Shown piece by piece: positions 11,256-43,837 of a DNA stretch of 64,000 nt. The translations under genes and the position numbers were made by a program. The DNA lies in assembly GCA_951406725.2 (NCBI GenBank), contig OX597832.1:29326001-29390000 (forward strand), given 5' to 3'. Position 1 is the stretch's first letter; each line of letters opens with the position of its first letter. The notes under the pieces are model-generated. The model did not search any database. It was given only the letters and a program-made list of their open reading frames with translations, and was not told the DNA's origin. The stretch is from Octopus vulgaris (taxonomy: Eukaryota).

Positions 11256-11583
11256 GATGATAACAATATAATGTTAATAGTCCAGAAATGTAAGATAATT
11301 GATTGTTTGTTTGTGACCAATGACCAATATGAAATCTCTTTGCAGTGAACAGTGTGAAGATAATTACCTTAAATGAGAGTGTGAAGAACTGTTTGCTCTG
11401 GTTGCCTGGATAACCAAATTGGATTGTTGTAGAGCAAGTAATTCTAGTTGTTCAGGCTCTCCAAGATTCAAGTTACTCACGGACTGGGGTGGAGCTGGCA
11501 GAAGAGAAGACAATTAAAGGGTCACAGAAGCAGCAGGGTGACGACAATGTTTGGAATGAAACGAGGAAGGTCGATGTGGTGGT

Positions 11584-13353: not shown

Positions 13354-16300
13354 TATATATACATACACACACACATTTGTATACATATATACAAACACAA
13401 ATAATGCAGTACGATCATTTCATGCAATTCCATTTAATTGAAGAATTCAATCAGTTCATCAATTTAACATGTAGAGCAATCCTCAGCAGCACAAAGACAT
13501 AGAATTTAATAAAATTAGAACAGATGGACAGATTTTATATATATATATATATATATATACATATATATATGATTCCACTCTGCTATGAACAAGTTTGTCC
13601 AATGAATGGAAATGTAATGAAATTCAGCCATACATTGATTGACCTGTATGTTGAAGGTAGGAAGATGTGATCATACATTGGTCTAGCATTGAGACAAAGT
13701 CATACTTTGGTATAATATCTGACCAAGTCATGTCATACACTGCCTTACCTCCAACTAATATTACAATATCAGGTGGTACATTGTTACATCAGTAATGATC
13801 TCACACACACACACACACACATAATAGAGTGAAACATTGTTGATACAGTGTAGTGAACTAGTTCTATCATTACATAGTTGAAATAGTGTCATACACGGGT
13901 AGAAAAGAGTGAAATATGGCCATACATTAATCGTAATACATTTGTAATATTGTCATGCATTATACACAGAATGGTAAACTCTAAATACCTTGGCACAATA
14001 TCGACTGTCAAACGCATGTTTGGCAATCTGATTCCTTAGAACAGTGATGGCACATCTATGAATGTCTCTGCTGTCATACAGGGCTATTTTCAATTCTTGC
14101 AAGAGCAGCCCTGCCAAATAATGGTTCTTTCGATATTCTTCAGATAACGTGTAGTCATGTTTCAAATCTATAGATATCAAAGAAATAGTTTCAGTGGAAT
14201 CAAACAAGAATTTCGGTTAGTAACAACTTCAAATAGCAAAAACCTTTATTGCCAAAATATAAACGGTTCTCAGTAAAATCCTATTTCTATGTTTATGACA
14301 CAATGAAAATGGCTTATTCCAAAAATATTTACAAAACTTATATTTGCTTCATTCAAGGAAGAAATTACAAACTGCTTTATGAATCCCTGATATTCTTAAA
14401 CTGACATGTATTTGGCAATCTGTTCAATAATATTGATTACACAGCAGAAACATTATTGGTTATTGACTCCTGGAAGAAGTACTCTAAGAAGGAGAGAAAG
14501 AAAAAAAAAAACAGATCCCAAAGTGAAAGATTTATCTTACTATCCATAAGAAAACCCTGACCCCCATCCTACTTCAATTCAACTCAGGTTTTCTAAATCT
14601 GCCTAAAGAAGTATTTGAAAAACAACAAATATTTTGGTTCTACCATTTCTAAATACCTTCTTCAATGGAATATATTCTTGCTACCCAATGTTTGGCACAT
14701 CTTGGCATAGCCTTATAACAGGTTTCTGCCTCAAATTAAACCTAGATTCTTTGAAAGCAATGAAACGGAAATTTTCAAATTGATGGTAGCATGAAAAATC
14801 TAACCAACGATGCCCAACGACTGCACATCAAATTCTTTGAATAACATTAGCAAAAACAATCTAATCAACGGTTTTCTTTATAAACTAGGAATTCTCAGAA
14901 TCTGGTCAAAACAATTCATGGATGTGAAGACATCAATGAGAATGTGTCCAATCAGACTTGTCGTTGGCAACCAAGAATTGGTGATATAAAGCAGACAAAT
15001 TCAAACTAGTGAATTGATTTCAGAGAAAAGTAGGTTGATGCCAGCCAAAGAGACAAGATGCTAGTGACAAGACAACAGAAGCTGATAGAGTTGTGAGCAA
15101 TGAAGTAGGATTGCAAACAAAATTCTTGTCATGCAAGTAACTGTGACCGATTCCGTTTTGGTAATCTGACTGCCAACCAATATGTCTAAACACTGGCTAA
15201 CCATTCCAATACATCATCAATCATCACACCCACACACATATATATATATATATAAATGTGTGTGTGTGTGTGTATGTATATATATTCTTTTATTTGCTTC
15301 AGTCATTTGACTATGGCCATACTGGAGCATCACCTTTATACATATATATATAAACAAAAAGTAAATTGATAATCAAAACTGAATTGGTTTTCTATTCTTC
15401 TGTTTTGGCTCTTCCAGACTGTCAAATCTGGAATGTCTTTTTCAAGTAGCAATAAATAGATGATGGAAAACTGATTTCAACTCATCTTCATTCCATCAAC
15501 TTTGGCTCATCATCACACTGCTACAGACCTTAATTAAAAAATGCCATTTTTTAATGAATTCTTTGCATTCTTCTACATCTATATCCTGTTTCTTGTGTTC
15601 TTTATAATTTACAACAAGAACCAAACCCGATGCCAACATGTTTTATACCCATGCCTCCTTTTCCCCATCATCTTCTTACACTAAATTTTATATTTATTTC
15701 TTTCGTCTGAAAAACTATAGACCTTCTCCTTTCCTACCGCTGTGATCCCCTTGTGCTCCCACCTTATACGAACCCCAAATTTTTCTGACTTTAACCAAAT
15801 TGATTTTAACCCTTCCCTTTCACTAATCAGTGAAACATTATAGACTATGGGGAAATGTTCCCTCTTTCTTTGAAAACAAAAATGAAAACCAAAATAAAAT
15901 GTGGTGAGTTGAAGCAATAATAAACCAAACTGGAATCAGGGATGTCTGCGAGAAGAAAGACAAGTTGTTATGCAACAATACAAAAGAATGGTCAGAGTTG
16001 TAATTAGTGAATCATTTTGCAGTCTTGAATCAACAGACACAGCAATTAACGGAGGATGTATTTGACTATTCTTGCATCTGTTCCATCTATTCTTCTGCCA
16101 CCTGGACATTGCATCACCAGCAGGAATCTTTGGCCAGTATTTAAAAATTAAAAAAATACAAAGAAGGTAATAAAAAAAAAAAAATAATTGTCAGAGCCAT
16201 TGTAGAATGGCTGGATGAAAAGGTCAATTTCTGGCGGCTGCCTGGTTCACAGCTGCTCAAACATGCAACGAAGTCCTCAAATAACCAGGAAGTTAAACAA

Positions 16301-16656
16301 AACAACAGCAGAGATTCTGTAATATTAGAAGAGTCAACGTAGAGGTGAGTGAGTAGCCATGCAGCCAATCAGTCAGTATGAGTCAAAGACAGTTTAGAAA
16401 TTAATTCAACTTTTAGATAAAATTTCTCTTACAACCAAAAAAATATTCATCTATCGGCAGATATTTATTACAAAAACATGGAAATTACCACAAAAATATT
16501 AATATAGGTGATTGTGTGGGTGAGTGTATAAACCCTTATTTGCAAAAACAGGTAAATGTTAGCAAAACGAAGAGCAACCAGCTGTAAAATAATGCTTTAG
16601 GATATGTCCTTGTCCAATCCATGCAGTCATGGGAAACACTTGAAAATGAACAAATA

Positions 16657-16688
<32 letters not shown>

Positions 16689-17433
16689 TGTGTATGTGTG
16701 CTTTTACAAGTGGTGTGAAGGGGTGAAAGTGACTTTAAAGTTTTGGCTTGTGGTCCGACAAAAACTACAGGTTGGCACTTTTAAGACAATGTCACCCAAT
16801 CATTAGTGAAAGTATAATAAATAGGCAATCTACAAGAAAATATCAAGTAATTCTTCAGCTTAATGTTAAATAAGTTTATACACACATACATATTTATACA
16901 CATTTGTACATACGTGGGTGTTTGTGTGCATGTGTATGTATAATATATATATATATGTATGTATGTGAGATCTACTATGAGCAGCTTAAGTCAGTGCTAG
17001 AAGAGAAACAACCATCTTTGGTTTCAAGACGAAAGATGCTCTTCCATCAGGATAATGTTCGGCCACATACAGCTAGTATAACATTCCAAAGGCTGGAGCA
17101 GTTTGAATGGGAAACGATGCACCATCCACCACATTTACCAGACATTGCCCCATCAGATTATCATTTTATTTCACAGTCTTCAAAATCATTTAGATGGAAA
17201 AAATATGAAATCTGTAGACGAGGTCAGAACAGTGCTGGAAGAGTATTTTCATTACAAACAAATGAATTTTGGAAGGGGGCCTTGCAAGTCTAGCAGACAG
17301 ATGGAAGAGCATTGTAGAAAATGAAGGAGAGTATGTTCTAGATTAAAAAAGAACTTTGTTTATCTTAATTTTGAAAAATAAAAGAAGTGTAAAAAAACAG
17401 TATTATTTATGGCATGGCTCGTGTGTGTATGTA

Positions 17434-17480
<47 letters not shown>

Positions 17481-17701
17481 TTGCCATTATGTGAAAATGT
17501 CATAAGTCCAAAATGTTGCCTTTTCAGAAAACACAAAAATAGTTACACCATCTGTTGTACTTTTGATATCTTGACATCTGAAGCAGCTGGAGATACAATA
17601 GTTTGACCAATAGAACCAGCTATTGCAAACAAGAATAAATATTGGAAAAAACGCATTTGGCCAAATTTGAACATACAACAGTTTAACATAATAGGCAACA
17701 A

Positions 17702-17735
<34 letters not shown>

Positions 17736-20570
17736 ATATATCTCTATATAAACGGCAGTTTGTCTGTGCGTGTTTCTGTGTGTCTGTTTGCTTGTACCCT
17801 CACCCTGACCACGGCTTTCAACCGATTCTGATGAAACTTGACACACACATAGCCCAATGTCATAATTCAAAACTAACGCAGAGAAAATTTTGAAAAGTTC
17901 CCCCAGTTTTGAAAAAATCGATAAATTCGACATGGGATCGAGAATCAGGAACACAAACCACAAACTGTGTAGGGGACGCAACTCCACCTTTTTTAACTAT
18001 CAAAAAAAAATTTACCATCATTTTTTTCCATTTTTTTTGCTATTTTTTGGCTATAACTCTCTAAAAATGCTTTATAGTTATTTCCCTTACAAACCTGAGC
18101 AACGCCAGGCGATACTGCTAGTATTTATATATATATATATGTATGTTTGTATGTATGTATCATTATAGTTTAATGTTTTATATATGTATATATATGTATT
18201 TATACACACATATATATATATACACATACATACTTACATACATATATATACATACATACTCGCACATACATACACATCTTATCACTATAAATACATACAT
18301 TCAGTGATATTGTCCAACCCATCTGGTAGGACAATAATCCTGTAAAAGAACTGACTTGGACAGTGTTAATCCTGTCCAACCCATGCCAGCATGGCAAGCA
18401 AATGTAAAATAACGATGTGTGTGTGTGTGTGCTCCTGCCAGAATACATTGGCTGCAGCACCTTGTTGAGTCTTCTACAAAAATTCTTGCATCTCCACTTG
18501 GTTTCTTTTGAAATTTCTGTCACTGAACTCCCTATTCCAGGATTTCAATGAAGACCAACGGATGATGTATTTCTATATCAGAAAAATCAAATTATTTGTT
18601 CTTGGAATGGAGAAATTAGAAAACAGACCATTCTGATAGACATCATCAAAGAAACGGTTATGTCCCTCTCCCTCTTTGGATCTTGTCTCTATATAGAAAA
18701 ATGACAGACTTGTTTATCCCTTGTTTTTGTGAAAATACATTGAAAAACACAAGAATGCATATAATTTTTGACTCTCCCTTGTATTTTTTGTTGTTGTTTT
18801 TTTTTTTGTTTCAGCTCAGAGCTGCAGCCATGCTGATGCACCGCCATTTAGTATTTTGTATATTGCAAAACTTTGATTCTTTTTCAATCTGCAACATTTA
18901 TATTCTTTACTGAATTTGAAAAGTGATCAATTTTTAATTTTTTGCATACTTTTCTAACAAACCTTTAAATCTTGGAGAATGTTTTGGTCTTTACCATTTT
19001 TAACACTATTCTAAGTCTTGAGAAATAATTGTTTGCTTGGCATTAAATTTTCATTCTATTAATTCAATCAATTTCTGGTTTTCAGTTATTTCCACGACAG
19101 AGATTTCATGAGTGGCTCCTGTAAATGATTTTCAAAGACATTTATGTTGAGTTTTTTTTTTAAATTATTGGATTATTCACCAGAGCTTTCATAGTAATAT
19201 AGGTTTTTTTTTGTGTCTGTTATTGAAGGAAAAGACCAGAATGGCACCAAAGAATTGTGATCTGCTTCAAAAAGGATTCTGGTTCTTTGATAATTACAAC
19301 AGTAGGAACTAAACATTTTTTATGTACTCCCATGTGAAAATATAATCAATTTTCTATGTAATTCTAACAATAGTGTACTATCTATAAATATATATTGGTC
19401 GAAAATGGTATAGAGAATTTGATTCTTCTGATAATATGAGAAATCTTATTTCACTGTCATTTATTTCAGAATCATCATTTTTGGTACCAAAGTGAAGCCA
19501 AAAGCCATTTCAATCTCAATCAATTTCTGTGCCGATAAGAATTTTCGAATCCCAAGTGACTCTCTTTGTCAGTTTGAAGAAAAACTTTGAAGGATGCCGA
19601 AGAATGTTTAGTTATGAGATTCACGATAGGCCAAAGAATAACAGAACAGATGGATTAGTACAGTCTGGTTATGTTGCTGCATACAAAAACTGATGGATTA
19701 GTAAAGTCTGGCTGTGGTGTAAAATATAAAACTGATGGATTGGTAGAGTCTAGCTGTGGTGTAAAATATAAAACTGATGGATTGGTAGAGTCTGGCTGTG
19801 TCCAGAGACACTATGGCACCTGAGATGGCTGGAAAACATATCGAATGGAACAACAACAAGAATGGTAATGATAAAGACAGTAATTCCTCAACCATTTTGA
19901 AGAATATTATTATTAAAGTTTATACTGATATTTGTGGTGTGGAATTAGTAACGTGGCACCTCCATAATATTATATGGAGGAGAACAAGAAGAAGAAGAAG
20001 ATGAAGCTGTGCAAATATATCTACATTAAAAGCAACTACTACAAGTAAATAAAACAACAACTAACAACAAATAAAATAAAGATAAAAAAACAATAAAAAT
20101 TGATTGCTTACCAGAGGGGTCATAGTGGTAGTAGTGATAAAAACAGACTAAAACTGCGTCGAAAAAGGGGACAGCAAAAATATCAAAGATTTAAAGTTTG
20201 AATTTTGGCCATTGGTTAAAAATGCATTCTTGTTGGTAATACTCACTAAAGAGGCGGCGGCAGCGTCTAAGAAATGGTTATTGATCTAAACAGCGAGTTG
20301 GTGAGGGGTGAAGGGCACAACGGAGGGGGGGAAGCACTACATGACCAGCTTTTAGAACAAAAATAAACTTTGGGTTAGTGGTGGAAATTTAGCTTTAAAA
20401 ACAGGGGAAAAGCGAAAATAAGAGAGAGAGAGAGAGAAAGACAAAGGAGAGATTGAGACAAAGAACAAAAGAGAAACTAGACAAAAATCTTTTCACAAAA
20501 TTTGAGAATATACTTAATGTACTAGATGTTATTATACATATATATATATATATACATACAAACATATGCA

Positions 20571-20610
<40 letters not shown>

Positions 20611-20756
20611 TATGTATATATATATATATATACATGTGTATATATATATATATATACACATACATGTGTGTGTGTATGTATATATGTGTATATATATATA
20701 TATGTGTGTGTATATATGTGTATATATATATATGTATATATACACACACACATATG

Positions 20757-20820
<64 letters not shown>

Positions 20821-23800
20821 TACACGTGTGTGTGTATATATATATATATACACATAGCATGGCTGCAAAATATTATATACACACACAGACATGCTTACGT
20901 ATATTCTCATACACTACACACATATATACACATTTTTGTATACCAGTATCTCTCCCAACATAGGCACACTCTCTCACACACACACACACACATACATACA
21001 AAACTGTATTCAGTCTGTGATAACATCCACTAATAATTCCAGATTATCTTAATCCTCTTTTGAGAAGATTCCATTCCAAGTACAAAAAATAAAGACCAAT
21101 TCCCAGAGAGATTCAATGGAAGAGAATCTCTACAGATATTGGAATTCCAGAACCATTTTTCTCAAGAAATACTGATTCACTTTAAAAATACAAAAATACG
21201 AATCCTGAAACCCCAGATGTGAGGCATCCTGCAGTCAGCCCAATACAACAGCCAATTCTCCCTCAACTTGATCCCTACAACTCACAAAATAGGAAATATA
21301 TTATCTAAGATGTTAAAACTTAGCAACATTTTAAAGATTTTCTTTTGTTTAAATCAACTGGCTTTATACAATATATGCAAAGGTGAGTGCTTAATATGAC
21401 ATTTATGTGTGCAAAGATAAACCTGACTAGGCCCACACATCTACAACATCAGTAGGCACAATGGCCCAGTGGTTAGAGCAGTGGACTTGTAGTTGGAGGA
21501 TCGCGGTTTCAATTCCCAGACCGGGCGTTGTGTGTGTTTATTGAGCGAAATCACCTAAAGCTCCACGAGGCTCCGGCAGGGGGTGGTGGCGACCCTGTTG
21601 TACTCTTTCACCCCAACTTTCTCTCACTCTTTCTTCCTGTTTCTTGTCCCCGACTTCCTACGCAATCGCTGAGCCTGGATGCGCATTCATCCATCCGTCG
21701 ATGCTCTCGGTGTCAGGGGTTGACCTGCTCTCTCTTCTGCGGGTCTTACGAATAGCAAAGGACAGCGTTTCGGACTTCTCCCACTCTGGGACGAAGACCG
21801 CTACACTCAACAGCAGCAACAGCAACAACAACATCAATCACCACAGACCCACTTCTGTCACTAAATTACTCTTATGATGTTTCCCTTTCTGTCAAACATT
21901 TCAGAAACCTTATACCTCTATATACTGCCTCTTTATGGCCCATTATTTATTCTATTTTGAGGGGCAGACTGAGCTGTTCGAGACACTACAGACATCACAT
22001 GTAAATCTACCAAAAGTTCAAAGGAACTGAAACAAAACAATCTATTTAGAGATACGGCAAAATACAAACGATTTGAATATAAACTATATCCATCCATCCA
22101 TCCATTTTCTCAGCCGAGTGTTCCTGGGGAAGTTGTGGGGCTGGAATTCTCAGAGAAGCAATCATTATTATACTTCCCCCTTGGATTCTCAAACATGGCC
22201 AACTGAGTCTATGGCTGTTCTCAAAACATCTCATTCTTGGTCTACCCTTCACTCTCCGACCACTTGGCTCAGCCTGGAGAATCCATCTTGTGATTTCCTC
22301 CTGTGACAGTCTAATCACATGACCATAGTACCAGAGCTGTGACCCCTGAATGCAGAAGAGTAGCAACTCAATCTGGAGAGATTCCTTCATCTCCAAGCTA
22401 CACACCCTGTCCAGTATGTTACACAGGAAGTCCTTTGGAGGACCTGTTGGTACTCTTTTGGTCATCAACCAACACTCATCCCCTTAATTAAGGCAGTGAG
22501 CTGGCAGAAACTTTAGCATAGCGGTCGAAATGCTTAGCAGTATTTTGTCTGTCTTTATGTCCTGAGTTCAAATTCCGCCAAGGTCGACTTTGCCTTTCAT
22601 CTTTTCGGGGTTGATAAATTAAGTACCAGTTGCACATTGGCGTTGATCTAATCAACTGGCCCCCTCCCCCAAAATTTCGGGCCTTGTGTCTAGAGTAGTA
22701 AAGAATATAACTCTGTAAAATCATAGTACGAAGATAAAACAGTAGATAGGGAAACCATCTTCATTCATCCAGATATGATTTGGGTGTATGCATCAATACA
22801 GATCCCTTTGTCATATATACACACATACTTATGTATATAAACACACAGAAGTATAAACGTATGTATACATACACTTGCTTATCTAAATACAAGCATATGT
22901 GTACATACACACACATATATGTGTGTGTGTATATGTTTATTGAACAATCAACACAGAGAAAATTTTAAAAGTAAGACAGATCTAAGGCCACAAACAAGAA
23001 ATATTGAAGAAAGTTCCCAAGACTGAACTTCAAGCAGTGAAGAAGCAGTCAGCGAGAGAGAGAGAGAGAAGGACGCCATGCCAAGTGTTGAGAGGTCAAG
23101 TGTGGCAGATGAAATAACAACAACAGCAAAAAAAAATTAAATAAAAATAAATAAATAAATTTCAAAATGACAAAATACTTCTTGAAACACTGAACTATCG
23201 ACTGTGGAGGCACAGTAATGACAACATCCCACAATCTAAAGAATTATTATTCTGGGAAAAATTAAGGGTCTGCCAGAAGATGTGAGAGAAATGATATAGC
23301 GCTCCACATAGAGTATCAGTATCCTGTCTATTTCTAGTGAAGCACTGTGGTTACTATTGTTCTTAGCAGTATTACTAGTTAGAAGACCGGTCAAGCTAAG
23401 TAAAATTGTAGCCATGGCTGACACTGGTGTCACATAACAGGCACCTGTGCTGGTGGCACATAAAAAGCACCTGTTGAGTATTGGGCCTTACGGAGGCAAT
23501 GTGGCCAATGCTGGTGTCATGAAACTGGCACCTGTGCTGGTGGCACATAAAAAGTACCTTTCAGTTGTTGGGCTTCACAGAAGCAATGACAAATGACTGA
23601 GACCTTTGGCAATATGCTGTGCTTGAGCAGAAGACCCATCAAGCCAAGTGAAATTGTAGTCGTGGAAGATAAGATACTGGTGTCGTGCCAGTGGCACATA
23701 AAAACACCCATTACACTCTTAGAGAGGTTGGTGTTAGGAAGGGGATCCAGCCATAGAAACCATGCCAAATCAGACTGGAATCTAGTGCAGCCCTTCAGCT

Positions 23801-23993
23801 TACCAGCCCTGATCAAACTGTCCAACCCATGACAGCATGGACAACAAACGTTAAATGATGATGCAGTAAAAAAAAGTATGATAAACACAAGATACAGTTT
23901 GATCTGTTGAAACATAATGCAATGAGGTATTCCTCCAATGATCTGTTGTGGCTCAGCATCCAACTGCAGTAGGAACATCTGATGCAGAGGTTG

Positions 23994-24029
<36 letters not shown>

Positions 24030-27000
24030 ATATATACAAATATGGCAGCACCAAGAGACAGTCAGAATAGAACCTCAGCAGGCATGATCTAAACGGATCA
24101 GAGATATGTTTGGAAAACTAAAACTAATTTATTGATAACTGAAATAAATACAAAAGAACTCAAGGACCCCCCTTACACATACACACACACACACGCACAC
24201 ATCAATCAGCTTTAATACGAGGTAAAGTAAGAGAGGAAACTGTGATACGTAGTTAGTAGTAGTAGTAGTAGCAGCAGCAACACATGGTGTGCATCAATAA
24301 TTACTAACAAATTTGTTCCCTCATTAATAAACATAATTAGACGCAACCTCATAAAACCTGACTTCTAACGAAGTAGTTGTCCTGTTATTTTAATTAATGT
24401 CAATGGCCAAAGTGGTTATTCAATAGAGTTGAGGGTAAACATGACTTTGGTAAAGGATTCTTCACAACTCCTCAGCACCAGTTCTCCATGAAGGGAGATG
24501 CTGTACAAGACTAGAAGATTCCATGGAATAAACCAAACCTAGAAACAGCTACGGAAAAGCTGTATTCCTAATTAGACAAGAAGGAGTGACCAGGAATATA
24601 AAGAACTGGTTACACGGTACAAACTAGTTTATGATGGAACTTAGAATTAACCAGAGGTGTATCAAAATGGCAACGTTCCCCACCTGCCACCCCGGACACA
24701 CGGACACATAAAAAAAAAAAAAGCAACAGGAAAATAACAACAACAACAACAACAACGACAAACTAGAAACAAAATAAGAGAAGAAAAAAAAATTACACTG
24801 AAAAGAAGAAAATAAGAAGAGAGGAAGAAGAAGTGTTATGAAGTGATTGATCAGATTGGTAATAAGTGATCAATGGTGACAAGGCTAAGGTGATTGGTAA
24901 GCGCCTGGCTACATATCACACAATGAAACGATGCAGTCTGGATGCAGAGACTGCACCGACAACAGAGAAGTAAGAATTTACCTTCCAATTGGACATCTGT
25001 CAGTCGTAAAGAGAAGAAATAGATTGACAACTTTGTTACCAACAATATTTTTATATACACAGGCACAAACACACAGACATATATATATATATATATTTAT
25101 GTTTATATATACATACATACATACGTACGTACACTGGCAAGAGACAACAGAAAAGCTATTGGCAGCACAACAAATAGCAACAAATAAACAATAAATATAT
25201 ATATAAAGTTGATTTAGAATTTACCAAAAGACAAATTGAAATATTTTATGCCAATTCTTTGGAAAATTATCTCAGTTTTAAATATACAAAAGCTGTTTAT
25301 TATGAATCAGTGCTGGTTAGTATACACCAATAAATATATTTTAGTAGCAATAAAATTTTAGTATACATTCATAAATTTGTTTAATTACTTTGTTCGTTTA
25401 ACCAAATTACAGAGTTGGGTCTTCAACCATTGACCAATTCCACTCTCCAAGACTTTTAACTGACACCACACGATGAGAGGATGAGGAATTAGACAGGGAA
25501 TTTCATGTAGAAAAAGCACAGGGAAAGAATTGGTTTGTCAGTAAGAACAGTTCTATCTGGATTATAAGGGATTAGCAATATTATCTAAGTCTATAAGAGA
25601 TAAGTAATTTTACTTAAGTCTATAAAAGAAAATATTATTAGGGTCTTTAAAGAATAAGTAGGATTATCTAAGTCTATAAGAGATAAAGTAGGATTATCTA
25701 GGTCCATAAGTAGTTCCTACATCTTGATGTCAGAAATGAAACAATTACCATATCATAAGAGATTGAACAAGAAGTGAGAAAGATTTTAAAGGTTATGTCA
25801 GGGGTGGGGAGAGGTTTGTTAATAAGGGGGGGTCAGTGCAACAGGGATGTATTGGCAGGGGTTCAAAGAGGGGTGTTTTTGTAGAAGTGACAGAGAGATT
25901 AGGCCTAAGATGTGTGACAGGAAAATATGTTAACTATATTACATATATTAATGGGGTGGTGGTGGTGGTGGTGGCCATGCCTGGATTACTGACAGGAAAG
26001 CATGTCAGTTGTATCACATTAATAGGGTCGACTCTATCTCTTCTAGATTATTGAGAGAAGAGGACACAACAGTCATGTGTTTATGTATTTGCATATATAT
26101 ATAGCTATGTGTATATATATATACATATATATATATACATATAAAATAATATACATATAAAATATATACAAATAAAATATAAAATACATATAAAATATAT
26201 ACAAATAACGTGGTGGTGTAACAATATTGTTGACAGGGCTATTAGACAAAAGAAACAGGCTTGGAAGGCCTGGAAGAACGGTGGTAGCAGGGAAGTGTAT
26301 CAGACTGCCAGAAGGGAAGCTAGGAGACAGGTCTATCTACCCAAAGGGGAAGCAGATAAGGAAAAATTTGCCAATGTCCTGCGCCGTGAGGATGAAAGAC
26401 TTGAGGTATTTCGTGTTGCAAGACAGTGTGTTAGAGAGAATCGTGACGTGGTAGGAGAGAAATGTGTTCGCAAGGATGACGGTTCACTTGTGCTAAATGA
26501 GGATGCAAAGAGAGAGGCTTGGAGACGCCACTATGAAAGGTTGCTGAATGAGGAAAATGAATGGGATAAAGTGAGTCTGCCGAATGTCGACCCAACAGAG
26601 GGACCAGCAATCCGAGTTAACAGTTCCTTAGTAGATAAGGCAATTAGAAGCATGAAAACAGGGAAAGCTCCAGGCCCATCAGGAATTACTGCAGAGATGC
26701 TCAAAATATCTGGTAGTGTCGGCTATAGCTTAGTCACCCGTATAGTTAACCAGGTGATACACGAAGGAGTCATACCCAATGACTGGTGTAGCAGCATAAT
26801 AGTCAACTGCTACAAAGGTAAAGGCGACGCCCTAGATACAAATAACTACAGGGGCATCAAGCTGCTGGATCAGGTAATGAAGGTTACGGAGAGGGTTATA
26901 GCCCAATTAATTAGAGAGAGAGTTAGCTTAGATGATATGCAGTTTGGGTTCGTGCCAGGGAAAAGTACTACTGATGCTATATTCCTGGTAAGACAGCTGC

Positions 27001-28816
27001 AGGAGAAATACCTAGCCAAAGATAAGCCCTTGTACCTGGCTTTTGTTGACTTGGAGAAAGCCTTTGACAGGGTCCCCCGATCCCTTATCTGGTGGTCAAT
27101 GAGGAAACTAGGGATAGATGAATGGTTAGTGAGAGCTGTGCAAGCCATGTACAGAGACGCTGCTAGTAAGGTGAAGGTTGGCAACGAGTACAGTGAAGAA
27201 TTCCGGGTAGAGGTTGGGGTCCACCAAGGTTCAGTCCTCAGTCCCCTCCTATTTATCATAGTCCTCCAGGCAATAACGGAGGAATTCAAGACAGGATGCA
27301 CCTGGGAGCTCCTCTATGCTGATGACCTTGCTCTAATTGCTGAGTCACTATCAGAACTGGAGGAGAAGTTTCAGGTGTGGAAACAAGGATTAGAATCGAA
27401 GGGCCTTAGAATCAACCTAGCCAAAACCAAAGTCCAAATAAGTAGGAAGGTGGACCAATCACAAACGACTTCAGGTAGATGGCCCTGCTCAATCTGTAAA
27501 AAAGGTGTAGGTAGAAACTCTATAAGGTGCACCAAGTGTAAGCTATGGACACATAAGAGGTGCAGCAATGTCAAAGGAAGGCTAACTAGGAAAATAGTTT
27601 TTGTCTGTGGCAGATGCTCAGGAGCAATAAACACTGGAAATGTGCAGAGACCAACTTCTACCACGTTCCAGGGAGACAAACTAGAAGTAGTTGATAGCTT
27701 CTGCTACCTAGGAGACCAAGTCAGTAGTGGGGGTGGGTGTGCTGAAAGTGTAACTGCTAGAGTAAGAATAGCCTGGGCAAAGTTTAGAGAGTTCTTACCC
27801 CTGCTGGTGACAAAAGGCCTCTCGCTCAGAGTAAAAGGCAGACTGTATGATGCATGTGTACGTACAGCCATGCTGTACGTACAGCCATGCTGTATGATGC
27901 ATGTGTACGTACAGCCATGCTACATGGTAGTGAAACATGGGCTGTGACTGCTGAGGATATGCGTAAGCTCGCAAGAAATGAAGCCAGTATGCTCCAATGG
28001 ATGTGTAATGTCAGTGTTCATAATCGTCAGAGTGTAAGTACCTTGAGAGAAAAGTTGAACCTAAGAAGCGTCAGTTGTGGTGTGCAAGAGAGATGGCTGC
28101 GCTGGTATGGTCATGTGACAAGAAAGGCTGAAGATAGTTGTGTGCAAAAGTGCTACACCCTAGCAGTTGAGGGAACCTGTGGAAGAGGTAGACCCAGGAA
28201 AACCTGGGACGAGGTGGTGAAGCACGACCTTTCGAACTTTAGGTCTCACTAAGGAAATGTCTAGAGACCGAGACCTATGGAAGTATGCTGTGCGTGAGAA
28301 GACCCGGCAAGACTAGCCAGGCCATAACCCGTGGCCCCTACCTGGGACGTAGTCAGTCCACCTCTGCATATCTTCCTTCTTGTGACACTTGTGAAGACCT
28401 GTTGAGGCAAGTGAAAATCAAATCAAAACAAATCAAAATAGATGAACATCAATGGAATTTGTATCTTTGTGATACCAGTGCCGGTGGCACACAAGAAAAC
28501 CATCCGAACGTGGCCGTAGCCAGTACCGCATCGACTGGCCTCTGTGCTTTGAGCGTGGCCGTCTGCCAGCCTCGTCTGGCACCTGTGTCGGTGGCACATA
28601 AAAAACACCATCCGAGCGTGGCCGTTCACCAGCCTTGTCTGGCACCTGTGTCGGTGGCACATAAAATCACCCACTACACTCTTGGAGTGGTTGGCGTTAG
28701 GAAGGGCATCCAGCTGTAGAAACACTACCAGATCTGACCTGCCTGGTGCAGCCTGCGGGCTCCCCAGACCCCAGTTGAACCGTCCAACCCATGCTAGCAT
28801 GGAAAGCGGACGTTAA

Positions 28817-28848
<32 letters not shown>

Positions 28849-31800
28849 GAGGGATGACAAGTATGTGGACATCCATATACGAGAAGTAGATCTGCTATGG
28901 TCTTACCACTAAGAAAGAAAATTTTAGAAATTTATTTATATATATATTTTAGAAATTTATTTATATATATATATAGCTATATATGCATATATAGATAGAT
29001 AGATAGATTTATACAGACTAGGATAAGGGGGAGAACACAACAGTGATGTATAGAGAACAGGGATATATGCATTGATACAGAGGGAAGACACAAAAATGGT
29101 GTGTATTATTGATTAGGCTCCTGTCTGCCATATGTCAGGGGTGAAGGAGAGATAGGTGTGATCTTCGTCTTTTCCTCAAACATTTAAGGGTGACATTGAA
29201 GTAGAAATGGATTGGAACTGCTTCCATAGCGCTAGTAACTCCTACATGCCAACACTTACCGAAAATGTATACAGGACATTGAGGAGCTCATAAATGGGGA
29301 CAGGGAAGGCATGGCCATAACGTTTAGGGGGTGGGGTGTAACAGAGATTGAATAATATTCAAGGATTATTAAAAAAAGAAGAAAAAAAAGATGGGAAAAA
29401 AGATTTTTAAAACGTACAAATTAGTTTAGAAAATGTAAAATTGTACACTAAATGTAGATCTATCAGGGATTGAACCAGTAACAAGCTAGTATACCAAACA
29501 AAACATTAATGAGTCAGAGTGAAGGAAAAGTCTTCAATTTTGGAAAATTTTTGGTTGGAACTGTTTCGCATGCTTAATTAATGTCTATAGGAAAAGCATG
29601 AAGGTCACAACTTCCAATAACAGTTCTTATAAAAACCAAAACTGCATGTTTATCTAAGAAGTTCTTATTAAACGAATGAGAGTTATCAGAAAACTTTATT
29701 CTAATTCTGACATCATCATTTGTTATCCTAAACACTCATGGGAATGTGATGAAGACCTCAGCATCCTTTTATAGTCGTCCAGGAAAACCTATGAACCTAA
29801 AGATATATGTTAAAGAAGTCAGATTTTTTTTTGATATTTCTTGAAGAATTATGCTTTAACTACATCAATGGAGAGAGACATCGCCTCTGTGTGGAACTCA
29901 GGTGACTGCTTCCGTTTCCATGGAACAAACAGAAGATCAAATGCTTCACAAACGATAGGCACCATGTCTGGGAAAGCTAGGACTAATACAGAATAGAGGG
30001 GACTGTACAGGCAAACTCCACAATGCCAGTGGTGGGATAGAATATACCCAGTCTACACAGAACATCCCAAAACAGTTTAGGCTCAATAGAAACATTAGGC
30101 GGCAAGCTGGCTGAAATGTTATCATGCTGGGCGAAATGCTTAGTGGTATTTCGTCTGCTGTTACGTTCTAGGTTCAAATTCTGCCGAGGTCGACTTTGCC
30201 TTTCATCCTTTCGGGTTCGATTAAATAAGTACCAGTTATGCACTGGGGTCGATGTAATCGACTTAATCCGTTTGTCTGTCCTTGTTTGTCCCCTCTGTGT
30301 TTAGCCCTTTGTGGGTAGTAAAGAAATAGGTATTTCGTCTGTCTTTACGTTCTGAGTTCAAATTTCACCAAGGTCGACTTTGCCTTTCATCCTTTCAGGT
30401 TCAATTAAATAAGTACCAGTCATACACTGGGGTCAATATAATCGACTTAACCCCTTTGTCTGTCCTTGTTTGTCCCCTTTATGTTTAGCCCTTTGTGGGC
30501 AATAAAGAAATAAGAAACACTGAAGAATACAACAGCAACTGGCATTCATGGCATAACAAAACACAGGACACACAGACCATGATGGTGATGATGATGATGA
30601 CAATAAAAACAATGACTGACATTGAAATATATGAAGAAAAACACTGACAACAAAAGAAAACAATTAGAACATTGCAGAACGTTTGGTAATTAAAACAATA
30701 ACCTGTAACAGTAAACGAACCAACATTATGTACATGTACAGAATTATGTATAGACAGAAAGATGTAGAAGTGGATTATGTGTGTGGAGAGAGAGAGAGAG
30801 AGAGAGATGTGGTAACAAACCTTTGTAATTTTTGATAAGGCCACGCCTCATTAGAGGAAGACAAAGAGGGATATAGTGTTCATGGCTACAAACTATCCTA
30901 AGGAACTCGAATTTCATTTGTTGGAATACCTGTGCCAGAGAAAAAACAAAAAACAGAAACAACAATGGTTAGGAATAATTCCCAAGAGCAGAAATGGTAA
31001 AAGTAACATTCATCAATAATAATAATAATAATAATAATAACCTGTAGTTTAGAAGATGTTAACAATGTTACTGGATCTGCTATGAATAGCAGCTAAATAT
31101 CCCTCAATTACAGACACCCTAATGTCTGTAAAAAAGGACTCGTTTAATAATGTAGTCTTAGATACATAATGAGTAAATAATGATGGGAAGGTCGTTTCAG
31201 GAATATTTTTTATAAGTGCAGCTGGTTGGCGTTAGGAAGGGTATCTAGCAGTAGAAACACTGCCAGATCAGACTGGAGCTTGGTGCAGCCTCCTGGCTTC
31301 CCAGACCCCAGTCAAACCGTCCAACCCATGCTAGCATGGAAAACAGACGTTAGACGATGATGATGATAATGATGATGTGCTGGATCAAGGCTTACCTAGG
31401 GCTAAAGAACAACTACACGGAAAGCTACATTAGATAATTGAGTCCTTGATAACATTGTCTCAGTAGAAGACAGGATGGTCATGGTTGGAACATCTCTGGC
31501 CAGTTGGATCATAGCTAAACTGGGACTAAGCAACAAAGAAGATTACATTAGATAGTGGAGTCTTTGATACATTATGTCTCAAAACCAGAAAGCCATGGCT
31601 GGACAGCTTTGACCATAGGCTGACCTGTGGCTGAACAACAATAACAATAACTAAATATTGTATCCAATCCTTCTTCCCCAGAACAATATCCTTCTGAAAC
31701 TATTACTGCAACCAGACGTCAGTAATAATCCAAACACACAACTTTATCTTAAGCCAATAATCTCTTTAATCCAATCCAGGCATGTGGATCAAGGTCTTCT

Positions 31801-41919: not shown

Positions 41920-43837
41920 TCTAGCAACTTACCTTAATTGCATTTAGGTGGTGAGCTGCATCATCTGTGACACGCCCATTTTCAGGCTAACCAAAGCACA
42001 AAATTTGAAGTAGGGTTTATAACTAAACAATTGGGTCAGAAATTCTAGTGGACAGACATGGCCTATCAATGCTACTTCTAAACTTCTTCATATTTGTTTG
42101 TGTGTGTGGTGTGGTGTGGTGTGGTGTGTGTGTGTGTTTCAAAGTTGTGTTGGTTTTGTTGATAGAAGCTTGCTAACACAAACACAAATGGCACAATCTC
42201 TTTTCTATTTTTGATGTCAGAGTGTTTCCACTGCAAAAAGATCCACCATGATTGGCATGAAGACATCAACCAGTCATTCACCAGTTTCCTCTGAGTTGTG
42301 AAGAATCCTCAGAGCAAGGAAGCAAAGGTGAAAAATGGTAAAAATTGAGGTTGATAAAATACGGTACCAGTCAAATACCGTGGTCGATTTGATATTCTTA
42401 ATACGTTTCAGATGAGAATGGAATCATAATACAAGACTTCAAGAGAGGAAGTTCTCTATTCAATATTCTCTGTGGGGTGGGGTTTGGCACCAAAACAGTT
42501 AAAATGATTTACCATTTTAGCCTTCAAACTTCCACTGTAACCTAAACTGAATCTTAATATTTTGCAATCAACTAATTCTATAGTGAAGTGATTTGGAGGC
42601 TTTCATCGTTGTCTATATTGAAACTTGGTAAAGACAGGTGGAAAAGCTGGAAGTAGTGAGACACTGTACAATGAACAGTTCTCAAAAGTGAGTTTGTACC
42701 GATTCCAGATGGTTTAGACTGAGCCTCATCCATAGACTGACATCGATGGGTGCATAACAACATCACCAGGCAGGGAATAGGAGGCTTTCATGCATGGTAA
42801 CATTGATATCACATAATTAACAAGAATAACAGCACATGTAATAATGATACAACATATTTTACAAGTGTATAATAATAATAATGTGTTAGAAGATTACACT
42901 TAATGCAGTTGGAAGTTGAATATCTTTAAGAACAAAGATGCCAAATTTTTACCTTAAAATAGTATTTAAATCTTGATATTCTGGATATTAAAACCGCTTT
43001 ATGGAAGTCTAAGTGAACTGATTAGAGAGAGAAAATGAATAACCTTCTAGGTTGGCAATGTGGGCTTGTGAGAGAAAAATTCAGACTAGGTGTGTTGAGA
43101 TATGGAGACTGGGAGAGTAATTTGTGTTTGATCGGTTATCAAATATGAAGCAGCTACTGTTGTCATATATATATATACAAGTAGAGATCAGGGTCCATTA
43201 TTGAGTCTCACAGAAGTAGCAATAACAGTCACTTCATTCAATTCATGGTGAATGTAAATAGTTGGTTGGTTTTCTTAATCAGGATGGCTTCGTTGGTCCT
43301 CAGGTTACCAATATTATAATTTATGACTTAAATGGTGACCACATTTTCCTTGTTAATATTCTTTTAATTATCAATGTCTTATCAACAGTGATGCATGCAT
43401 GTGTGTGTGTGTGTGGAGGGTATTCTCTAATTCTCAATGTGTAAGGACCAAATTGTGCTGCTGACCTGACATCTGGTGCATTTACTGCACTGGATTTGTT
43501 AGATGATATAATTTCAGTCAGCACATTGATGAATGCCAAGATATCAATCCAAAGAGACATTCATACATTCATTCATCTACTCTCTCTCTCTTTCTTCCCC
43601 TGCCTCCCTGTAGTTCTCTTAACCCTTCATAAAGAAGTTTTTATGCTTGAAACATCAGGACTATTAAATGTTTTTACGGTAACATTTCAATATGTTTGTT
43701 TCCCATCTTATTGATGTTTAAATTTCCAACCGCATTCTTGAAACCTTCTGACATACAGTTTTATCATTTAATCACTACGTTTCAACAAACAACACTATGA
43801 ATAAATAAATAAATAAATAATGATAATAATAATAATC

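Follow-up and report, generated by a model that had tools for sequence, protein, structure and literature searches.

A conserved 15-nt alternative microexon in a long DOCK-D intron of Octopus vulgaris marks a recurrent site of convergent splicing

Can one large intron supply several small, frame-preserving exons to a signalling protein? The question is raised by a 64,000-nucleotide (nt) stretch of the Octopus vulgaris genome (C19:29326001-29390000 of a 2.8 Gb genome; hereafter the window), whose minus strand carries the greater part of an octopus DOCK-D (DOCK9/zizimin) gene, with the remainder in neighbouring stretches. An original prediction, made from the letters of the window, had proposed that the intron at 14168..30820 harbours four microexons (27, 15, 42 and 9 nt) combined under neural control. 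The analysis presented here identifies a conserved alternative microexon, the 15-nt segment, at a recurrent and convergent splicing site; the other three segments are treated below as candidates.

The gene model was built from a bivalve homologue and then completed with cephalopod proteins. At the protein level the window exons are 100% identical to P0129 (labelled Octopus vulgaris) and to P0128 (Octopus sinensis DOCK9 isoform X1). The gene was assigned to the DOCK-D class (DOCK9/10/11, zizimin) because P0129 carries, in this order, DOCK_C-D_N (PF11878, residues 65-174) and PH (PF00169, 195-300), both N-terminal to DOCK-C2 (DHR-1; PF14429, 666-863), followed by DHR-2 lobes A-C. These lobes are nearest to DOCK9/10, and the DHR-2 model shares 55% identity with the DOCK9-Cdc42 structure 2wm9; a PDB sequence search with the 59-residue exon gave no match.

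Two constitutive exons of the minus strand flank the intron: the upstream one (30821..30929; 109 nt; donor AAG|GTTTGT) ends in KNYK plus G and is 100% identical to residues 1117-1152 of P0129 and to P0128, and the downstream one (13989..14167; 179 nt) starts D-LKHDY and is 100% identical to residues 1158-1217 of P0129. They join in phase 1, giving KNYK-D-LKHDY. When the coordinates were checked in the sequence, the intron (14168..30820, minus strand in the gene model; 16,653 nt) proved to be by far the largest in the window, of phase 1 and bounded by the KNYK-LKHDY junction, all as predicted. The next largest (6,881 nt in the first model) is itself split by a 54-nt cassette exon, the only larger introns of the gene are those following the alternative first exons outside the window, and the three largest internal introns each contain a cassette. 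Part of the size is explained by inserted repeats and a long interspersed nuclear element (LINE) frame: about 30% of the intron is repeat-derived, some 3.4 kb has matches at other places in 237 kb, and a reverse transcriptase frame of LINE type, 600 codons from stop to stop (26145..27947; RVT_1, E 8.8e-33) lies on the plus strand, antisense to the gene. The same region has a weak PHD-like match and further frames up to about 28250; the length of the open frame suggests a young copy.

The 15-nt segment (24982..24996, minus strand; donor AAG|GTAAAT; AG-free zone of 32 nt) is, judging from database proteins and its splice score, almost certainly a real and optional cassette exon adding five residues, DVQLE. 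Its use splits the intron into 5,824 and 10,814 nt, and its splice score is the best among the 2,861 AG..GT pairs of the intron. Both splice forms occur in cephalopod proteins, bearing out for this segment the expectation that the intron holds a real alternative microexon: the exon is included in eight and skipped in three of the 11 O. sinensis isoforms listed, included in the single O. vulgaris protein and in both O. bimaculoides proteins, and skipped in the Argonauta protein. A squid/cuttlefish-like cluster of Logan proteins, which also holds Sepia pharaonis fragments, contributes 13 proteins (three with DVQLE, seven without, three not covering the junction); the members listed were 15 of 16 for the octopod cluster and 15 of 21 for the Logan cluster. 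The peptide is identical in three Octopus species and in the Logan cluster. One O. bimaculoides model, P0125, runs past the donor of the exon into intron sequence, with 41 of 44 residues identical to those of the window; P0125 also omits the downstream exon, probably through an annotation error. Public gene models already include the exon; a literature search returned no paper describing it, and the supplements of bioRxiv 10.64898/2026.09.05.749416, which include O. bimaculoides, may list it.

Bivalve and gastropod proteins, too, carry five-residue inserts at this junction, and their clusters contain skipped forms as well. Nine forms were recorded (DVQLE, DIKLE, EIKLE, EIKME, DIKQE, DIKPE, EFKPE, DFKPE, DFRVE), which we infer to be encoded by separate, homologous exons; protein comparison makes it likely that the 15-nt exon was already present in the ancestor shared by cephalopods, snails and bivalves. 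In sequence the inserts are close to the residues that open the downstream exon (DVQLE/DIKLE against DLKHD/DLQLD, DVQLE aligning with DLQLE of shark), and insert positions 2-5 score against these residues above 93-100% of 258 D/E-starting control pentapeptides (98.8% for DVQLE). This resemblance suggests that the microexon was born as a duplicate of the downstream exon's beginning, a suggestion weakened by the slight likeness at the DNA level and which we hold tentatively, at somewhat less than even confidence.

The same junction accommodates other inserts in other animals. Within molluscs, seven residues (21 nt) were found in three pulmonates, six (18 nt) in Mytilus, DIKLE+ALH (an extra 9 nt) in one oyster protein, and 13-35 residues in scallop, Dreissena, Mya, Littorina and a chiton (63-105 nt in the last four); some of the inserts known from single models may be annotation errors. 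Isoforms of the crinoid Antedon combine 8-, 11-, 28-residue and longer inserts, those of the acorn worm Ptychodera carry 9- and 16-residue inserts, and a nemertean has one of 18 residues; no insert was present in the single Anopheles and Strigamia proteins. Vertebrate DOCK9 bears a 14-residue insert at the junction, in 9 of 15 Elgaria and 7 of 14 Scleropages proteins among the matches listed, and in all 120 of the listed proteins (of 254 matches, in a search aimed at the insert), including chimpanzee, dog, axolotl and eel. The alternative insert of vertebrate DOCK9 that the original prediction had expected at the equivalent junction was therefore found; a counterpart expected for DOCK11 was not recovered in clean form, seven of eight shark DOCK11 proteins lacking an insert and one having an odd one. 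The mouse Dock9 neural pair of 6+36 nt was rejected as the counterpart, as its lengths fit inserts of DHR-2 (AA + QYQFTDSETDVE). PMC4633719 concerns other Dock9 exons, which could not be placed, and PMC8797185 reports a 42-nt neural exon in fly Ziz, whose position relative to the junction could not be mapped. The idea of a combinatorial splicing hotspot holds for the crinoid, the acorn worm and some molluscs; a neural cluster of four exons in the octopus is not supported so far.

All four proposed segments are indeed bounded by AG..GT, are multiples of three and are free of stops in phase 1. The intron contains 2,861 AG..GT pairs of 3-60 nt, of which 1,007 are multiples of three and 620 of these are also open; because 620 segments satisfy them, these bare criteria carry no weight alone, and the cluster inferred from them was not confirmed. 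Scored with a splice-site matrix trained on just the 31 exons of the gene itself, a matrix that rates GTAAG donors too low where the exon end is atypical, the 15-nt segment came 1st, the 42-nt 7th, the 9-nt 24th and the 27-nt 152nd among the 2,861 pairs. A strict rule (strong donor, pyrimidine tract and AG-free zone) retained exactly three segments of the intron (27, 15 and 42 nt), all frame-keeping; none of its six matches in the antisense window and the other introns kept the frame, and 100 Markov shuffles gave a mean of 0.16 matches, with three reached in one of the 100. A relaxed rule gave seven matches, five of them frame-keeping and four of these the proposed segments. Against a 254-kb null with the 15-nt exon removed, the excess had P values of 0.0004-0.41 over 12 threshold settings (below 0.05 in eight), which are optimistic because the thresholds were set after the candidates had been seen.

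The 27-nt candidate (29260..29286, minus strand; APQCPVYIF) has a TCG|GTAAGT donor, a GAG acceptor, an AG-free zone of 159 nt, TGC at -25 and GCATG just downstream; the 42-nt candidate (20112..20153, minus strand; 14-residue peptide) has a CTG|GTAAGC donor, an AG-free zone of 73 nt and TGC at -23. Both combine GTAAG donors with 74% pyrimidine tracts and lie in unique sequence (no other genome match over the 42-nt segment, a single genome match for the 27-nt segment). The weak 9-nt candidate (19820..19828, minus strand; AIS; donor CAG|GTGCCA) passes only the relaxed rule. None of the three peptides occurs in the 622 proteins fetched, so that their proposed use as exons is unsupported so far; the 27- and 42-nt segments are kept as candidates because their splice signals are better than background. 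Real use is doubtful for the 42-nt segment, slightly more so for the 27-nt one and quite improbable for the 9-nt one. Two further candidates were rejected, one of 57 nt at 28342-28398 inside a repeat segment and one of 24 nt at 18299-18322, 49 nt from a repeat segment; homology of the 42-nt candidate with the vertebrate 42-nt cassette was also rejected (mean BLOSUM62 -9.3, matched by 35% of 409 random intron peptides).

Contigs from 7 of 24 runs were aligned to the stretches 13900-20400 (X15, X1, X6, X11) and 18900-20500 (X6, X11, X7, X9); no run is recorded as RNA, and the downstream exon was present in 19 of the 24. Four contigs of 2.5-5.9 kb (runs X1, X6, X11 and X15) align over 13988-14169 without difference and continue beyond. 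Because they match this interval exactly and then continue elsewhere, the exon joined before 14167 ends in AG in these contigs; this ending is compatible with direct joining and with either the 15-nt or the 9-nt segment, and neither the 27-nt nor the 42-nt segment is the last piece in these four. No contig over the 42-nt or the 9-nt segment, nor a joint to either, was found in the seven runs; since contigs drop rare forms, this result does not speak against their use. Runs X6 and X11 gave a depth signal close to the 42-nt segment, which was discarded, as it consisted of 22-31-base matches of 90-95% to the low-complexity sequence at 19972-20044.

The junction lies in the ARM region between DHR-1 and DHR-2. 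Modelled with AlphaFold2 from an alignment of 55 sequences, P0147 (a protein of the skipped form; mean predicted local distance difference test, pLDDT, 73.7) has the junction at K113|D114, in a linker (94-122) between ARM helices whose ten-residue pLDDT means are 67, 57 and 75, with 57 at 101-110; the length of this linker varies widely across distant DOCK proteins. The junction is predicted to sit in a surface, inter-helix loop of the ARM solenoid, and the variable loop expected between DHR-1 and DHR-2 agrees with the domain matches, the modelled linker and the length variation. PMC13663769 describes the DOCK11 ARM domain as an alpha-solenoid wrapped by N-terminal segments, which binds activated Cdc42 at AR1 and the loop 949-952. 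As the junction corresponds to residue 1104 of shark DOCK11, well C-terminal of that site, a direct effect on the Cdc42 interface is not implied. Inclusion of DVQLE would lengthen an exposed loop by five residues, leaving the catalytic DHR-2 untouched, and its most likely effect would be to tune a binding surface or the way the ARM region packs, not catalysis. Since the ARM loop would tolerate insertions and a phase-1 intron would accept any cassette that is a multiple of three, cassettes may have been gained independently in different lineages; the length of the intron may reflect both the flanking of a regulated exon and the uptake of repeats.

Inclusion of the 15-nt exon may be regulated by tissue or stage, and whether that regulation would be neural is evenly balanced. 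The octopus genome carries an eMIC exon (SRRM_C, PF15230, over cut-off) of an Srrm2/3/4-type gene at C25:37317492-37317626, in line with the regulator that the original prediction had invoked. PMC8797185 gives a long AG-free zone and a UGC close to the acceptor as marks of eMIC targets, and lists eMIC-dependent exons for mouse Dock7, Dock4 and Dock9; it also reports enrichment in GTPase genes in mouse and in ion channels in fly, which contradicts the enrichment in GTPase regulators across bilaterians that had been assumed. The 15-nt exon has no TGC within -30..-3 of its acceptor, a motif present in the 27- and 42-nt candidates and in a second 15-nt microexon of the gene (GKMKS, see below), and its AG-free zone is shorter than those of the flanking constitutive exons (57 and 110 nt). 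Octopus splicing is described in PMC9699675 as highest in neural tissue and otherwise ordinary.

Taken together, we consider it probable that the intron contains one real, optional DVQLE exon in the ARM loop, likely ancestral to cephalopods, snails and bivalves, and that the other three segments are unused or rare. Several points weigh against this. The proof of the exon consists of database proteins, mostly computed gene models, with no bridging junction read or contig; the homology of the mollusc inserts is deduced from the position, length and sequence of proteins, and the DNA of the exon has little in common with the start of the downstream exon beyond AG|AT; the high identity of the intron read-through in P0125 is not calibrated against a baseline for how far introns of O. 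vulgaris and O. bimaculoides diverge; the material examined assigns the loop no function; and the above-background signals of the 27- and 42-nt segments are left unexplained if these are unused. It is on these last signals that a true octopus cluster would rest, in which the 42-nt and/or the 27-nt segment are rare, neuron-restricted exons of eMIC type missed by annotation: the two are the only other strict-rule matches in 16.6 kb, both in frame, they have the donors, pyrimidine tracts, AG-free zones and TGC motifs that correspond to the eMIC marks given in PMC8797185, they lie in unique sequence, other molluscs bear extra inserts at the junction, an eMIC exon exists in the genome, and P is below 0.05 in most threshold settings. 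We nevertheless regard this as unlikely, given that the two peptides are missing from all fetched proteins (including the listed members of the octopod and Logan clusters), that the AG preceding 14167 in the four long contigs is the ending of neither segment, that the thresholds were picked after the candidates had been seen and two settings give P values of 0.22 and 0.41, and that the 42-nt peptide is no closer to the vertebrate 14-residue insert than about a third of random intron peptides.

The fuller scheme of the original prediction, in which all four segments are used and freely combined under neural eMIC control, can appeal to their open, frame-keeping nature, to their predominance among the in-frame matches of the relaxed rule and to Antedon, which has such a combinatorial set at this very junction; with a 9-nt segment that has a poor GTGCCA donor and fails the strict rule, three of four segments lacking protein support and a proven exon without UGC, it is highly improbable. 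At the opposite extreme, the 15-nt insert could be an annotation artefact in an intron merely inflated by repeats, with no real alternative exon. The abundance of segments satisfying the bare criteria, the repeat-derived share of the intron and the failure to see a bridging contig are compatible with this, but the insert occurs with and without inclusion in independent annotations and in Logan contig-derived proteins, is identical in octopods and the squid/cuttlefish-like cluster, and is similar in bivalves and snails, so that an artefact is hardly credible. A wider interpretation, which we advance as speculative and improbable rather than as our preferred one, is that of an exon nursery: an intron shared by molluscs, nemerteans, echinoderms, hemichordates and vertebrates, in which each lineage has its own cassettes, those of molluscs deriving from duplication of the downstream exon and the octopus adding one or two unannotated, neuron-restricted exons (42 and 27 nt). 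If true, it would place a combinatorial code on a regulatory surface of a Cdc42 activator.

Other parts of the gene are also alternatively spliced. The second 15-nt microexon, GKMKS, lies on the minus strand about 2,055-2,069 bases before window position 1, in a 9.7-kb intron after the exon 1165-1222; it is included and skipped in cephalopods, has two TGC motifs and a GTAAGT donor, and by these sequence features fits the eMIC pattern better than the DVQLE exon. GKMKS-like inserts occur in oysters, abalone, mussels and a chiton, and vertebrate DOCK9 has inserts of 23-26 residues at the same junction. The 54-nt cassette exon (41933-41986, minus strand; 18-residue peptide) lies at the start of the ARM region and is both included and skipped in O. 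sinensis and in the Logan cluster. A nine-base alternative donor (GID present or absent) distinguishes O. sinensis isoforms at about 69905-69914 in window-extended coordinates, and at least two alternative first exons precede the second exon that they share, at distances of 22 kb and 66 kb (window-extended about 102400 and 146400); for a third N-terminus, that of P0134 and P0136, no position was found within the 254 kb covered. The bivalve-based model had missed a 127-nt exon (11368-11494, minus strand), which brings 12888 and 10300 back into frame.

Most of what has been charted of microexon programmes comes from vertebrates and flies. A microexon that has probably been conserved in cephalopods, snails and bivalves, with different cassettes at the same junction in other phyla, is a test of whether certain loops are repeatedly chosen for splicing control, here in what is likely a regulatory surface, the ARM loop of DOCK9-type guanine nucleotide exchange factors (GEFs), situated C-terminal to the activated-Cdc42 site of DOCK11 by about 200 residues. 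The surprise is modest, because public gene models contain the exon and because the repeated gain of exons at equivalent intron positions is a pattern on record. 

In comparison with known systems, the octopus gene has the domain order common to the DOCK-D GEFs (DOCK9/10/11, fly Zizimin); by database names the mollusc gene is their single pro-orthologue, and its ARM-loop insert has five residues against 14 in vertebrates. Like the eMIC-dependent neural microexons of PMC8797185, the octopus exon is small (15 nt), frame-keeping and located in a GTPase regulator; it differs from them in that its acceptor lacks a nearby UGC and its AG-free zone, at 32 nt, is comparatively short. The 42-nt ARM-loop cassette of vertebrate DOCK9 (AFLSPTVESNDTPV type) is likewise optional, at the same junction (RYQ|DLQLD) and, by translation, in the same phase, and its sequence resembles neither DVQLE nor the octopus 42-nt candidate; it is absent among the Dock9 rows seen of the mouse table in PMC8797185. 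In the way it works, the site is comparable with the type I convergent tissue-specific exons of bioRxiv 10.64898/2026.09.05.749416, defined there as different exons gained at equivalent intron positions, with an 18-nt microexon of fly sponge and vertebrate DOCK3/4 as an example. That case concerns DOCK-B proteins and lies in DHR-2, whereas the octopus exon belongs to DOCK-D and lies in the ARM region; here likewise, as judged by protein alignment of the junction only, orthologues carry non-homologous cassettes at an equivalent position.

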